This document shows, one piece after another, positions 1,152 to 40,917 of a DNA stretch of 64,000 nucleotides. The notes beneath the pieces are model-generated. The model was given only the letters and a program-made list of their open reading frames with translations, did no database searches and was not told where the DNA came from. The position numbers were made by a program, and so were the translations under genes. Position 1 is the stretch's first letter; the number at the start of each line of letters is the position of its first letter. Origin of the DNA: an uncultured Rikenellaceae bacterium (GTDB lineage Bacteria > Bacteroidota > Bacteroidia > Bacteroidales > VadinHA17); contig CAWDHN010000012.1 of NCBI GenBank assembly GCA_963802145.1, forward strand, positions 438,721-502,720, written 5' to 3'.

Positions 1152-1574
1152 ATGAGGGATCTGACAAATATAAAGATAGCGGTTGACTTTGACGGTACAG
1201 TTGTTGAGCACGACTACCCTGCCATCGGCAAGGAGATGCTTTTTGCCTTCATCACCCTGAAGGAGCTTCAGAAGAGAGGTGCGCTGCTCATTCTCTGGAC
1301 ATTCCGCACCGGCAGGGAGCTGAAGGAGGCGGTCGACTACTGCAGGCAGAACGGCATTGAGTTCTATGCCGTGAACAAAAACTACCCGGAGGAGCTGTGG
1401 ACAGAAGATACGCCACGCAAGGTAAATGTTGACATTTTCATTGACGACAAGAATGTAGGAGGCTTCCCGGGCTGGGGCGAGGTGCTGAACATGATCGATC
1501 CGTGGTCGGAGAGAGAGGAGCAGGCAATGCGTGCGATCAAGACGCGGCGTTTCAGCCTGTTCGGTAAGAAATAA
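1152..1574 (+). CDS. HAD-superfamily phosphatase (BT0820-like)
   Basis: IAVDFDGTVV motif I, WTFR, FIDDKN. Confidence 0.85.
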   Translation: MRDLTNIKIAVDFDGTVVEHDYPAIGKEMLFAFITLKELQKRGALLILWTFRTGRELKEAVDYCRQNGIEFYAVNKNYPEELWTEDTPRKVNVDIFIDDKNVGGFPGWGEVLNMIDPWSEREEQAMRAIKTRRFSLFGKK

Positions 1575-1615
1575 TATCGCCCCGATGAAGCAGCTATTCA
1601 AACATATCGGCAATT

Positions 1616-1797
1616 CCCATTCGCAAATCGCAAATCGCAAATCGGCAAATCACCGCTTTGCTCAACCCATTCGCAAATCGCAAATCGCAAATCGCAAATC
1701 CCGCTTTGCTCAACCCATTCGCAAATCGCAAATCGCAAATCGCAAATCCCGCTTTGCTCAACCCATTCGCAAATCGCAAATCGCAAATCGCAAATCC
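1616..1797 (+). repeat. tandem repeat of a 48-bp unit CCCAT(TCGCAAA)4TCCCGCTTTGCTCAA, ~3.7 copies
   Basis: Units at 1616-1665 (50 bp, two extra bases), 1666-1713, 1714-1761 and partial 1762-1797. Confidence 0.95.
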
Positions 1798-1817
1798 CTC
1801 TCTTCCTCTTCCTGCTC

Positions 1818-2903
1818 GTGATTATTTCAATGATCTCCTGCTCTGGCTCCCCGGGTAAGGGAATTGATAAGACCGCCGTCACTGCCGGAGATGAGGCCGC
1901 GGCTGACACCCGTCCGTCGAAGAGGCTTATTGAAGTGCTTGCCCCTGCCGATAACTCAATGTTGTCATGCTCTGACAGGATAGTCTTTTCCGTTGCACAG
2001 GCGGCAGGCCAGACAAGGGTTGACTCCGTACAGCTATGGGTCGACGGCTCCCTGAGGAAGACTCTCTTCACCCTGCCGGCTGAGGCAGAGCTCGACCCGG
2101 CAGGCATTCCGGGCAGGATATCCCTGCGGGCCGTGGCATACTCATCATCGTCAAAACCTCAGACAGTGGCACTCTTCGTTACGCTCCTGTCAGATATCAC
2201 CCCGGTGACTTACCGTTACCGCGTTGTCAGGAGCTATCCGCATGACAGGCGGGCCTATACGCAGGGACTGGTTTATGACAGCGGCTTCTTCTATGAAGGC
2301 ACAGGGCAACAGGGTGAATCATCGCTGAGGAAGGTGGAGGCCGTGACAGGCAAGGTGGTGAGCCAGGTCAATCTCGACGGCTCTCTCTTCGGAGAGGGTG
2401 TGGCACTGCTCGGTGACCGCATCTATCAGCTCACATGGACAACCAAAGTGGGCTTTGTATACGACAAATCGACCCTTAAACAGGTCAGCAGGATATATTA
2501 CCAGACCCAGGGATGGGGTCTGACGACCATGGGCGACAGCCTGGTGATGAGTGACGGAACCAATGTGATATGGTTTCTCGATCCGGAGTTCAATGTCCTC
2601 TCTTCGGTTGAAGTATGGGACAATAAGGGGATGGTGGATAACCTTAACGAGCTCGAGATGATTGACGGGGAACTCTGGGCAAACATATGGCAGACAGACA
2701 GGATAGCACGCATTGATCCGCTGTCAGGGAAGGTGCTTGGGTATGTCGAACTTAATAACCTGCTGCCCCGTGAGGAGCGTTCACAGGAGACCGACGTGCT
2801 TAACGGCATCGCCTGGGATGCAGTTAACAGACGCCTCTTCGTCACGGGCAAATACTGGCCCAGGCTCTATGAGATCACTGTCTCTCCGCTGACCCGCAAC
2901 TGA
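1818..2903 (+). CDS. glutaminyl-peptide cyclotransferase (type I, beta-propeller QC), lipoprotein; true start probably ATG 1585 upstream of the repeat
   Basis: YPHD..AYTQGL, FGEG, QLTW, GWGL, NELE, ANIW, LNGIA, TGKYW motifs; lipobox-like MISC. Confidence 0.9.
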   Translation: MIISMISCSGSPGKGIDKTAVTAGDEAAADTRPSKRLIEVLAPADNSMLSCSDRIVFSVAQAAGQTRVDSVQLWVDGSLRKTLFTLPAEAELDPAGIPGRISLRAVAYSSSSKPQTVALFVTLLSDITPVTYRYRVVRSYPHDRRAYTQGLVYDSGFFYEGTGQQGESSLRKVEAVTGKVVSQVNLDGSLFGEGVALLGDRIYQLTWTTKVGFVYDKSTLKQVSRIYYQTQGWGLTTMGDSLVMSDGTNVIWFLDPEFNVLSSVEVWDNKGMVDNLNELEMIDGELWANIWQTDRIARIDPLSGKVLGYVELNNLLPREERSQETDVLNGIAWDAVNRRLFVTGKYWPRLYEITVSPLTRN

Positions 2904-22367: not shown

Positions 22368-22414
22368 ATCTCAACTATTTATTTCATCAGTACAGGAACA
22401 AGAACCGTACCAAT

Positions 22415-27000: not shown

Positions 27001-27594
27001 ATGGTAATCAACTGGATAACTGAAAATATTGTCGAGATCTTCGGGGCCGTTGCGGGCATTGCCTACGTGATCCTGGAGATAAAGCGCAACATACTGCTGT
27101 GGCCGCTGGGGATAGTCACCTCCGCGGTGTATATATATGTTTTCGGGCGCAACGGGTTTTATGCCAACATGGGATTGCAGGGATACTATCTTTTCATAAG
27201 CGTTTACGGATGGTACAGGTGGCGCCGGCAGCAGGAGGGTGATCAGAGCGGTGCACGGACCGATGTCAGGCGGATAGACTCCGTCACGGCGTGGGTGTGT
27301 GCACTGGTGTCGGTGGTGCTCTGGGCAGGACTGTGGTTGCTTCTCGACCGGGCGACGGACTCACCGGTGCCACTTTGGGACGGTCTTATAGCCTCCTTCT
27401 CCGTGGTGGCCACATGGATGCTGACCAGGAAATACATTGAGCAATGGTATGTATGGATTGTGGCCAATGCCATTGCCGTGGCTGTCTACCTGGCCTCCGG
27501 CCTTTACCCGACGGCCGTGTTGTTTCTGGTCTATTTTGTGATGGCAATTGTTGGGGTGCGGGAGTGGCGAAAGCAGTCGCCAGTCAGGCAATAG
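27001..27594 (+). CDS. pnuC: PnuC-family transporter (thiamine, PnuT-like)
   Basis: WPLG, LQ.YY..ISVYGW..W, KYIEQW..W..N; start ATG 27001. Confidence 0.9.
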   Translation: MVINWITENIVEIFGAVAGIAYVILEIKRNILLWPLGIVTSAVYIYVFGRNGFYANMGLQGYYLFISVYGWYRWRRQQEGDQSGARTDVRRIDSVTAWVCALVSVVLWAGLWLLLDRATDSPVPLWDGLIASFSVVATWMLTRKYIEQWYVWIVANAIAVAVYLASGLYPTAVLFLVYFVMAIVGVREWRKQSPVRQ

Positions 27595-27597
27595 AGG

Positions 27598-27661
27598 AAT
27601 TTTCGATTTCAGATTTTCGATTGTCGATTTATCGCAAATCGCAAATCGCAAATCGCAAATC
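27598..27661 (+). repeat. inverted pair of heptamer arrays: ATTTTCG/ATTGTCG-type arm then (TCGCAAA)4
   Basis: Read directly; same family as 1616-1797 and 40716-40823. Confidence 0.9.
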
Positions 27662-27666
27662 CTTCA

Positions 27667-27734
27667 GACTTTACAGACTTTTGACTTTATGGACTTTTAA
27701 CTTTAAGGACTTTTGACTTTACAGACTTTCGACT
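27667..27734 (+). repeat. 16-bp (9+7) tandem repeat x4, GACTTTAnn-GACTTTT, abutting the thiN ATG
   Basis: gactttaca gactttt / gactttatg gactttt / aactttaag gactttt / gactttaca gactttc / gact-ATG. Confidence 0.9.
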
Positions 27735-28358
27735 ATGAAAACCGTAATCCTCGCCAACGGCGCTTACCCCATACACCCGGTCCCCCTTGGCCGCCTGCAT
27801 GATGCAGATCTTATCATATGCTGTGACGGGGCGGCGGAAAAGCTTGCAGACCATGGACTTGAACCGGGCATAATAATCGGAGACCTTGACTCCGTCTCTC
27901 CTGCCCTGAAAAAGAGGTATGAAAAGATCCTTGTTCAGGATTCAGACCAGGAGACCAATGACCTCACAAAGGCGGTCAGGTGGTGCGCGGCGCATGGAAT
28001 AGAGGAGGTTGTCATCCTCGGCGCCACAGGCATCCGCGAGGACCATACACTGGGCAATATTTCGCTTCTTGCAGAATACAGCCGCATCATAAAGGCCACC
28101 ATGGTCACTGATACCGGTACATTCAGGGTTTATGACCATAACGCAACAATCAGCTCGCGTCCCGGTCAGCAGGTCTCGCTCTTCAGCCCCGACCCCGGTC
28201 TGGCCGTAACCTCCACCGGTCTTCGCTATCCGCTGGATGATCTTAAACTGTCATCCTGGTGGCGCGGAACCCTCAACGAAGCAGAGGGGGAATCATTCTT
28301 CCTGGAGTTCACAGACGGACAACTTATTGTCTTTATGGAGTTCCCTGACCAGAGCTGA
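27735..28358 (+). CDS. thiN: thiamine diphosphokinase
   Basis: CCDGAA, GDLDS, DQETNDL.KA, GATG.REDH..GN, TGLRYPL. Confidence 0.92.
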   Translation: MKTVILANGAYPIHPVPLGRLHDADLIICCDGAAEKLADHGLEPGIIIGDLDSVSPALKKRYEKILVQDSDQETNDLTKAVRWCAAHGIEEVVILGATGIREDHTLGNISLLAEYSRIIKATMVTDTGTFRVYDHNATISSRPGQQVSLFSPDPGLAVTSTGLRYPLDDLKLSSWWRGTLNEAEGESFFLEFTDGQLIVFMEFPDQS

Positions 28359-40715: not shown

Positions 40716-40823
40716 AATTTTCGATTGTCGATTTTCGATTGTCGAATGATTGGGTAAATCTGATATCGCAAACTGACAATTCTTTACGGGATCTGCAATC
40801 GCAAATCGCAAGTCGCAAATCGC
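40716..40823 (+). repeat. inverted pair of heptamer arrays: (ATTTTCG ATTGTCG)2 ... AAATCGC-type x4
   Basis: Shares the exact 18-mer ATTTTCGATTGTCGATTT with 27613-27630. Confidence 0.85.
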
Positions 40824-40917
40824 ATATTTCTCCACTTTCTGCTGCCTGATCCGCCATTCACCGCCACTTTCTGACGGCCCGCCGGTATTTAACAATTATT
40901 TGACTTAAAAAACTTGC

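Follow-up and report, generated by a model that had tools for sequence, protein, structure and literature searches.

In a 64,000-nt stretch of DNA from a sediment Bacteroidales genome (G000), hereafter the window, the gene for a type I glutaminyl cyclase (QC) carries at its 5′ end a tandem array built from the heptamer TCGCAAA. The array lies between an ATG at position 1585 (ATG1585), just downstream of a HAD-type phosphatase gene, and the hydrophobic h-region and lipobox of a lipoprotein signal peptide. We consider it very probable that the array is a member of a dispersed repeat family that invaded the n-region of this signal peptide, and that ATG1585 is the proper start of the gene. The fuller account that we favour, and to which we give slightly better than even chances, is that the array is a translated, fast-mutating extension of the n-region, and that the allele assembled in G000 is frame-broken.

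The comparison set comprised 65 genomes of the genus, and the labels G002 to G058 denote genomes compared within it; C-numbers refer to G000 contigs, L-numbers to loci and P-numbers to public proteins, and X1, X6 and X8 are among four metagenome runs that were aligned as Logan contigs to the window region. Lipoprotein signal features were judged by reading the sequence for a start codon, an n-region, an h-region and the lipobox cysteine. The evidence on alleles comes from assembled contigs; contigs built at k=31 break inside the repeat and so cannot count its units. No contig from the four metagenome runs bridges the array, and the parts left uncovered carry no information.

A heptamer array at the 5′ end of the cyclase gene

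A first-pass annotation, made from the sequence alone, had placed a heptamer-built repeat inside the QC signal peptide, and Tandem Repeats Finder called the array at 1616–1798 with a period of 48 and again with a period of 7 and the unit TCGCAAA, bearing out this placement (Table 1). The 48-bp unit consists of (TCGCAAA)4 and the spacer CCCGCTTTGCTCAACCCAT (about 19–20 nt), which is found three times. The double heptamer TCGCAAATCGCAAA has 17 matches in the window against 0.02 expected, with 11 of the 17 lying within 1621–1794, and the longest perfect run at the locus is four heptamers, compared with a genome-wide maximum of six in G000. Unit 1 measures 50 bp, against 48 bp in the other full units, and contains the two additional bases that the annotation had pointed out; together, G1645 and A1652 displace ATG1585 by +2 from the QC frame.

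Over its whole length the array is free of stop codons in all three forward frames. A 7-nt unit regains the same frame after 21 nt, and the heptamers therefore give the same basic heptapeptide, SQIANRK in cyclic permutation, in every frame, so that the spacer alone differs from one frame to another. As RNA the array region is unstructured, unlike the hairpins of the family to which it belongs: the fold of 1560–1860 (−45.9 kcal/mol) is weaker than that of shuffled sequence (mean −51.2 kcal/mol, z +1.29), and the opposed arm (TTTTCGA/TTGTCGA) that usually completes an imperfect hairpin elsewhere in G000 was not found at the QC locus. Two open reading frames (ORFs) on the reverse strand, 1594–1779 and 1598–2107, were dismissed, as they overlap the phosphatase and QC genes and are made of repeat sequence.

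The upstream start codon and the frame of the cyclase

ATG1585 lies 10 nt past the stop codon of the phosphatase gene, reads MKQLFKHIGNSHSQIANRKS... and terminates at TGA 1819–1821. Its distance to the QC frame is 233 nt, which is 2 modulo 3; the ORF list and the translations agree with the first-pass annotation on both figures. The QC frame itself is open from 1575 and contains no ATG, GTG or TTG ahead of a GTG at 1818 (GTG1818, product MIISMISC-SG). GTG1818 is thus the sole canonical in-frame start in the assembled sequence, seven residues ahead of the lipobox cysteine, and the layout of a lipoprotein precursor, with start, charged n-region, h-region and cysteine in one frame, is not seen in G000 as assembled. 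The same layout is present in 37 of 40 relatives, in the public protein P0002, and in G000 once the frame is corrected. When G1645 and A1652 were removed in a script, the single stop-free ORF that the annotation had predicted was obtained exactly. An extra heptamer in either of the two tracts tried, tract 1 and tract 4, also restored the frame, as did the loss of two heptamers from tract 4.

Gene callers truncate the QC to MIISMISC or MISC, and localisation predictions based on the signal peptide will therefore be wrong for this protein. A switch of localisation through GTG1818, which had also been proposed, is unlikely, given that only seven residues precede the cysteine and that the corresponding codon is ATC in G005. 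The stop codon of the ATG1585 frame (TGA 1819–1821) overlaps GTG1818 as GTGA, a classic termination–reinitiation layout; the overlap is not kept in G005. Programmed ribosomal frameshifting was rejected, as G000 would need −1 and G005 +1, and no slippery site was seen by eye. Read-through of the stop codon from the phosphatase gene, which is in the same frame, was rejected as far-fetched.

An ancestral start shared by relatives, and other n-region inserts

The QC is present in 62 of the 65 genus genomes, and the phosphatase–QC gene order is conserved across the genus, with the QC behind the phosphatase in all loci read. We read 41 loci, 40 of them informative, L024 being cut by the end of its contig. 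An ATG located 10–20 nt past the phosphatase stop and in frame with a lipoprotein signal (e.g. MKRSAVYISLLSLVLVAVISC) occurs in 37 of these 40. This alignment of the N-termini of relatives, one of the checks suggested at the outset, shows ATG1585 to be a conserved ancestral start.

The nearest relatives carry n-region inserts of their own. In G019, an in-frame insert at the junction of n-region and h-region reads MKQGDVHIAKPKQQIP..., and G041, G057 and G058 have an in-frame insert of ~20 aa, which gives 40–41 aa from ATG to cysteine; at the latter three loci the same 189 nt upstream are open in frame, with no length change. The public proteins P0004 and P0006 contain repeat-derived n-region inserts that are read through in frame. 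In P0006, whose QC is 84% identical, the n-region contains RINPVHEVSG twice, and the insert matches a second dispersed element (…CTCAATCCCGACCACGAAGTGCGTCGGGAC…) with at least 11 copies in G000 by a degenerate motif, for example at C12:579774. Judging from these sequences, the n-region of the QC signal peptide is a recurrent landing place for the dispersed repeats of the genus, probably because the spacer between the phosphatase and QC genes is so short.

At one locus (L026, in G002) the phosphatase and QC share one open frame of 571 aa, and a long Thr/Gly-rich repeat with GGTACCACC-like units follows the lipobox. A scan of metagenome contigs with the lipobox 19-mer returned 55 loci, none of them QC-like (24–35 of 60 downstream bases identical), and an exact match of the 19-mer in G043 (L089) was attributed to chance.

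In-frame and out-of-frame alleles

P0002, a protein of 406 aa, is 100% identical to the window QC over all 361 residues of the body and begins MKQLFKHIGNSH-LQIANRKSQIPLCSTH-SQIANRKSQIPLFLFLLVIISMISC, such that the ancestral start stays in frame through 1.8 clean units and reads through the repeat into PLFLFLLVIISMISC. A 445-bp contig from X8 (depth 5.09, six substitutions) spans 1300–1685 and lacks exactly the bases at 1645 and 1652. Comparison of G000, P0002 and X8 therefore gives at least three versions of unit 1, two of which are clean, and by the evidence of these sequences in-frame alleles of this QC gene exist in nature. The ancestral ATG, the read-through in P0002 and the X8 contig together strongly support one of the two interpretations offered in the first pass, a signal peptide lengthened by a repeat element.

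Two other members of the genus have lost the frame in different ways. In the sister species G005, with a protein 97% identical, the ATG is followed by ...CATATCC, five heptamers and the same h-region, and is off by 1 modulo 3; ATC occupies the position of GTG1818, and no ATG, GTG or TTG occurs in the QC frame before the h-region, which remains hydrophobic, with V changed to I through two base changes. G012 has a different insert, of 60 nt, and its ancestral ATG is also off frame. A new ATG stands directly ahead of the G012 h-region (MPVFLFLLVIISMISC), reading CAA ATG CCG where G000 and G005 read CAA ATC CCT (the ATC at 1794–1796 in G000). The G012 locus (L027) further contains a −1, +5, +1 stretch in the N-terminal Ig-like part, a net +5 indel matching window 2113–2126; this internal frameshift is either a pseudogene feature or a local assembly fault in a genome that is 75% complete. 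As called, the proteins P0003 (89% identical) and P0021 (84%) begin at MISC, three residues before the lipobox cysteine, which is the gene-caller product expected if the upstream signal peptide is out of frame. Across the alleles compared (3.8 units plus 2 nt in G000, 1.8 units in P0002, a clean unit 1 in X8, five heptamers in G005), no difference is a pure change in heptamer count.

Two joints in the metagenome contigs were set aside: one in X6 (1642>1681, skipping 38, with a side of 21) has an in-frame length but is too short-sided to trust, and one in X8 (1703>1896) is probably from another organism. Within G000, much of contig C11 (35 kb) is 96–99% identical to part of C7 (198163–225599), including a duplicated M28 peptidase (L171, L172); the likeness stems either from redundant strains in the assembly or from a duplication of recent date.

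The TCGCAAA family in the genome and the genus

G000 contains 78 perfect tracts of two to six TCGCAAA units, and a 21-mer of the heptamer gives 112 matches there at up to one mismatch, against 0 for the reversed control. Nearly all of the tracts (74 of 78) lie outside ORFs of at least 150 aa. The family is present in 49 of the 65 genus genomes and is richest in G000 and G005. In the usual arrangement, a tract makes up the right arm in an imperfect palindrome (TTTTCGATTGTCGATTTAATC...AATCGCAAATCGCAAATCC) that closely follows a stop codon or closely precedes a start codon. By sequence, the QC array belongs to this genus-wide, mostly intergenic, hypervariable repeat family.

We compared 15 G005 tract loci with G000 and set two aside, the QC locus itself and one without orthologous flanks. 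All 13 of the remaining orthologous tracts differ between the two genomes, in heptamer number, composite units, orientation or content, between flanks that are ~94–96% identical. Growth by composite units (46–64 bp, tract plus spacer) recurs, being seen at L138, L148, L153, C7:91328 and C10:1233342. The odd motifs in unit 1 of the QC array, TCGGCAA and AATCACC, are also found in other family copies of G000 (C12:242621, C9:54113 and C10:453351), and therefore look like natural variants.

Individual copies illustrate the range of these arrays. The composite array at C10:1233342–1233403 is located between convergent genes and has a spacer (CCCGCTTTGCTCAAGCCAT) nearly identical to that of the QC array, and that at C7:91328–91448 has units of ~50 bp holding a GGCCTACGGCC hairpin. 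Within the window, three different short-repeat families follow one another in the intergenic gap at 27590–27740, which is filled by TTTTCGA-type units, then (TCGCAAA)4, then GACTTTn units, and ends at an ATG near 27736; at 40716–40830, a degenerate TCGCAAA tract lies behind a TTTTCGATTGTCGA arm. The G005 orthologue of this second gap (L138) is 321 nt long compared with 228 nt and holds extra composite units with heptamer tracts of their own, so arrays there also grow by composite units. At L148, L151 and L160 of G005, the heptamer palindrome stands in the opposite orientation to that in C6 of G000, as if inverted or re-inserted.

The cyclase, its constraint and the Q-rule

The window protein matches PF05096 (Glu_cyclase_2) at E 3e-93 and 312 bits (cut-off 22.3) over residues 127–354, and the PDB entries 3nol, 3mbr and 2faw at E 1e-67 to 5e-62. 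By domain and structure-database similarity it is a type I glutaminyl cyclase, and its gene is the only one in G000 with PF05096. The QC body is under purifying selection: dN/dS between G000 and G005 is 0.087 at dS 0.18, with 0–0.08 in four neighbouring genes, and neither body contains internal stops.

A Q-rule has been described for Bacteroidetes (PMC10653852; PMC5837995). A crude scan of signal-peptide candidates in G000 found an AxA site followed by Q (AxA-Q) in 350 of 815, with E in 6% and N in 5%. By this crude count G000 follows the Q-rule, in line with the glutamines after signal peptidase sites that the first-pass annotation had picked out.

The search for a second, M28-type QC that it had also suggested turned up nine M28 ORFs in G000, none of which was recognised as a type II QC in profile, PDB and protein atlas searches; this is a limit of recognition rather than a demonstration of absence. 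NCBIfam gave only sub-threshold aminopeptidase matches for the nine. For two of them, of QC-like size, leucyl aminopeptidases rank first in PDB searches, and one ORF weakly matches part of the B. thetaiotaomicron QC (4fuu, E 1.6e-6, ~100 residues) and is labelled a generic M28 peptidase by the protein atlas.

Table 1. Features at the 5′ end of the glutaminyl cyclase gene, in window coordinates
Feature	Position	Strand	Basis and remarks
BT0820-family HAD-type phosphatase	1152..1574	+	NCBIfam NF046079, E 4.5e-52, above cut-off
Ancestral start and the QC lipoprotein signal peptide's original n-region (MKQLFKHIGNSH)	1585..1620	+	Translation, genus loci, P0002
Tandem array	1616..1798	+	48-bp units, 3.8 copies (50, 48, 48, 37 bp), 98% matches (Tandem Repeats Finder)
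Irregular part of unit 1	1642..1655	+	TCGGCAAA (extra G1645) and TCACCG (extra A1652)
h-region and lipobox, QC-frame codons I-P-LFLFLLVIISMIS-C	1794..1841	+	Cys codon 1839–1841; codon 1794–1796 is ATC
QC ORF callable in the assembly (GTG1818, 361 aa)	1818..2903	+	N-terminal Ig-like part and five-bladed propeller, type I glutaminyl cyclase

A proposed translated, fast-mutating extension of the n-region

In the account that we favour, the only type I glutaminyl cyclase is a lipoprotein whose true start, inherited from its ancestors, is ATG1585. A member of the TCGCAAA family would have landed between the n-region and the h-region and then grown by duplication of 48-bp units. Such an insertion may have been tolerated because the array is stop-free in all frames and because its heptamers, whichever way they are read, specify a basic peptide resembling an n-region. 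At any length that leaves the ATG in phase with the QC, the array would be translated as a long n-region. It would also mutate fast, with steps of a whole 48-bp unit keeping the frame and steps of one heptamer or single-base indels breaking or restoring it. The G000 allele, with its +2 nt in unit 1, would give little or no exported QC, barring rare slippage or weak non-AUG initiation. From the sequences we infer translation of the repeat, the presence of the G000 allele in cells and recurrent changes of frame by slippage. Frame toggling is better read as a by-product of a hypermutable repeat than as a proven regulatory switch; we favour this non-adaptive reading because the tracts are short, the break is one of point insertions and the family is overwhelmingly intergenic.

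Several points weigh against this account. P0002 could represent the same sample under a different assembly, and 48-bp repeats are liable to be collapsed by short-read assemblers. In G000 the break consists of two point insertions 7 nt apart and is no heptamer step, and perfect tracts are short (3–5 units), with low slippage rates in known systems. A1652 is present in the G000 assembly alone, and the depth that X1 and X6 show at 1645 may stem from other repeat copies; more generally, the evidence comes from assembled contigs. The in-frame ATG ahead of the G012 h-region hints that in this small clade the QC may have given up the ancestral ATG for a start at that point. Finally, QC is reported to be essential in P. 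gingivalis, where its deletion is lethal and orthologues of much lower activity rescue (PMC10653852), and a null consensus allele in two to three species is therefore hard to accept without leaky expression.

Alternative explanations

The alternative to be taken most seriously, although we think it unlikely, is an assembly or consensus error, in which the real G000 allele would be in frame, and G1645, A1652 and perhaps the number of units would be artefacts of a 183-bp tandem repeat. Two extra bases so close together in a single unit would fit such an error, as would the clean units in the X8 contig and P0002 and the fact that the QC is constrained and single-copy; strain-level redundancy, as between C11 and the part of C7 to which it is ~97% identical, can moreover confuse a consensus. 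However, essentially no frameshifting ORF gaps were seen over the 50.9 kb aligned between G000 and G005: of 24 gaps in ORF bodies, two fall in the QC 5′ region, one outside it (at 22381) is uncompensated, and the other 21 are compensating pairs or sums of multiples of three. TCGGCAA and AATCACC look natural, occurring as they do in other G000 copies, and G005, which was assembled independently, is also out of frame. A weaker point is that X1 and X6 have depth at 1645 without a deletion. We lean towards the out-of-frame allele of G000 being real, as the assemblies are clean, the variant motifs look natural and G005 is broken independently.

The first-pass annotation had raised a slippage-driven switch, and a true contingency locus, in which slipped-strand mispairing of heptamers turns QC export ON and OFF, or high and low, and is maintained by selection, with subpopulations that keep free N-terminal Gln, seems improbable to us. 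It would account for a unit not divisible by 3 between the start codon and the functional body (heptamers 1621–1794), for near-identical QCs in both frame states (G000 out, P0002 in), for a G005 allele that is one heptamer step out of frame and has no alternative start, and for strong purifying selection on the body despite broken 5′ ends. All 13 orthologous tracts differ, and the heptanucleotide repeat of neuO, with about two thirds of genomes phase-OFF (PMC13001214), offers a precedent. But any frameshift can be fixed by ±1 heptamer, and being one step from ON therefore carries no weight. Other observations also speak against a selected switch: the point insertions that make up the G000 break, tracts of 3–5 units where long uninterrupted ones would be expected (neuO commonly has ~20; PMC13001214), and a family found overwhelmingly between genes, with the array in the QC having the look of a chance insertion. 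A further objection is the essentiality of QC in P. gingivalis (PMC10653852). We place slightly less confidence again in its strongest form, namely that signal-peptide slippage makes expression of the single enzyme that puts pyroglutamate on hundreds of secreted proteins stochastic, such that sister cells would differ globally in the N-terminal chemistry and the stability of their periplasmic and surface proteins.

There is a small chance that the clade of G000, G005 and G012 uses a different start just ahead of the h-region, namely the ATG in G012 and a near-cognate AUC at 1794 or GTG1818 in G000, and that the repeat is an unstructured 5′ leader or an upstream ORF. G012 has ATG where G000 and G005 have ATC, giving MPVFLFLLVIISMISC, and all three members have lost frame continuity with the ancestral ATG, by different amounts. 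The region folds worse than shuffled sequence, and poor folding is expected at initiation regions in bacteria that do not use Shine–Dalgarno sequences; in addition, the GTGA overlap would permit termination–reinitiation. Against such a start, the QC frame of G005 lacks ATG, GTG and TTG codons up to the M of MISC, with ATC in place of GTG1818, and a start at GTG1818 provides only seven residues ahead of the cysteine and lacks a charged n-region. Initiation at AUC is very weak in those bacteria in which it has been studied, and in P0002, whose QC body is identical, the ATG1585 frame is used or at any rate unbroken.

Early pseudogenisation, with the QC being lost in a small clade, is very improbable: G000 and G005 do lack an in-frame start, G012 has its internal net +5 frameshift and P0003 and P0021 begin at MISC, but dN/dS is like that of the neighbours with no internal stops in the G000 and G005 bodies, the genome follows the Q-rule and no other QC was found in it, and an in-frame allele with an identical body exists.

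Comparison with known systems

In opa of Neisseria (CTCTT) and oipA of H. pylori (CT), as at the QC locus, a repeat in the part of the gene that encodes the signal peptide sets the frame of the mature protein. The CTCTT repeats of opa are located in the leader-coding region. For oipA, the CT repeats are in the 5′ region (PMC10564699). Opa and OipA are host-interaction surface proteins of pathogens and their tracts are long and pure, whereas the QC array is an intergenic-family repeat in the n-region of an environmental Bacteroidales protein.

The closest parallel in unit length is neuO of E. coli K1 (AAGACTC), which like the QC locus has a 7-nt unit in the 5′ coding part, with a length that decides on full-length translation and with both genotypes present in genomes. 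Its repeat is translated as a peptide extension of 3–53 repeats, and 65.6% of 64 genomes are OFF (PMC13001214). It differs in having one long pure tract, with switching measured by fragment analysis, whereas the QC locus, known from sequence alone, has tracts of 3–4 units, a 20-nt spacer and 48-bp super-units. It also differs in being a phage-borne surface modifier, whereas the QC is a housekeeping periplasmic enzyme, broken in G000 by two point insertions.

Abundant intergenic heptamers are likewise known, as the long simple sequence repeats (LSSRs) of Mrazek et al. 2007 and as TAACTGA of Beggiatoaceae, Cyanobacteria and some Bacteroidetes (PMC4679880). LSSRs and REP/BIME-like elements resemble the TCGCAAA family in forming dozens of short tandem heptamer sets, mostly intergenic and near starts or stops, with patchy distribution and fast turnover. 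The unit TCGCAAA is different, however, and the QC locus has neither an opposing arm nor a stable fold, its array lying within a coding region. The window QC shares PF05096, a lipoprotein signal in relatives, and closeness to 3nol, 3mbr and 2faw with the type I (plant-type, beta-propeller) QCs, whereas the Bacteroidetes QCs studied experimentally are, according to the cited passages, type II (M28-like), and those passages describe no experiment on a type I QC from Bacteroidota.

Control of frame by repeats in 5′ coding or signal-peptide sequence is thus known already, as are abundant intergenic heptamers; what is unusual here is the target gene and the phylum. The cited passages of the literature contain no repeat-extended or frame-broken signal peptide for a type I QC of Bacteroidota, although no search was aimed at one. 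The locus suggests that the n-region of a signal peptide can take in REP-like heptamer repeats of a dispersed family, which are then translated, and several different inserts occupy the same n-region spot in sister lineages. Should the frame-broken allele prove real, the consensus genomes of two or more related species would carry a null or very leaky version of a gene that P. gingivalis cannot do without. Either QC would then be dispensable in these organisms or very little of it would suffice; both possibilities would matter for Q-rule biology and for QC as a drug target.

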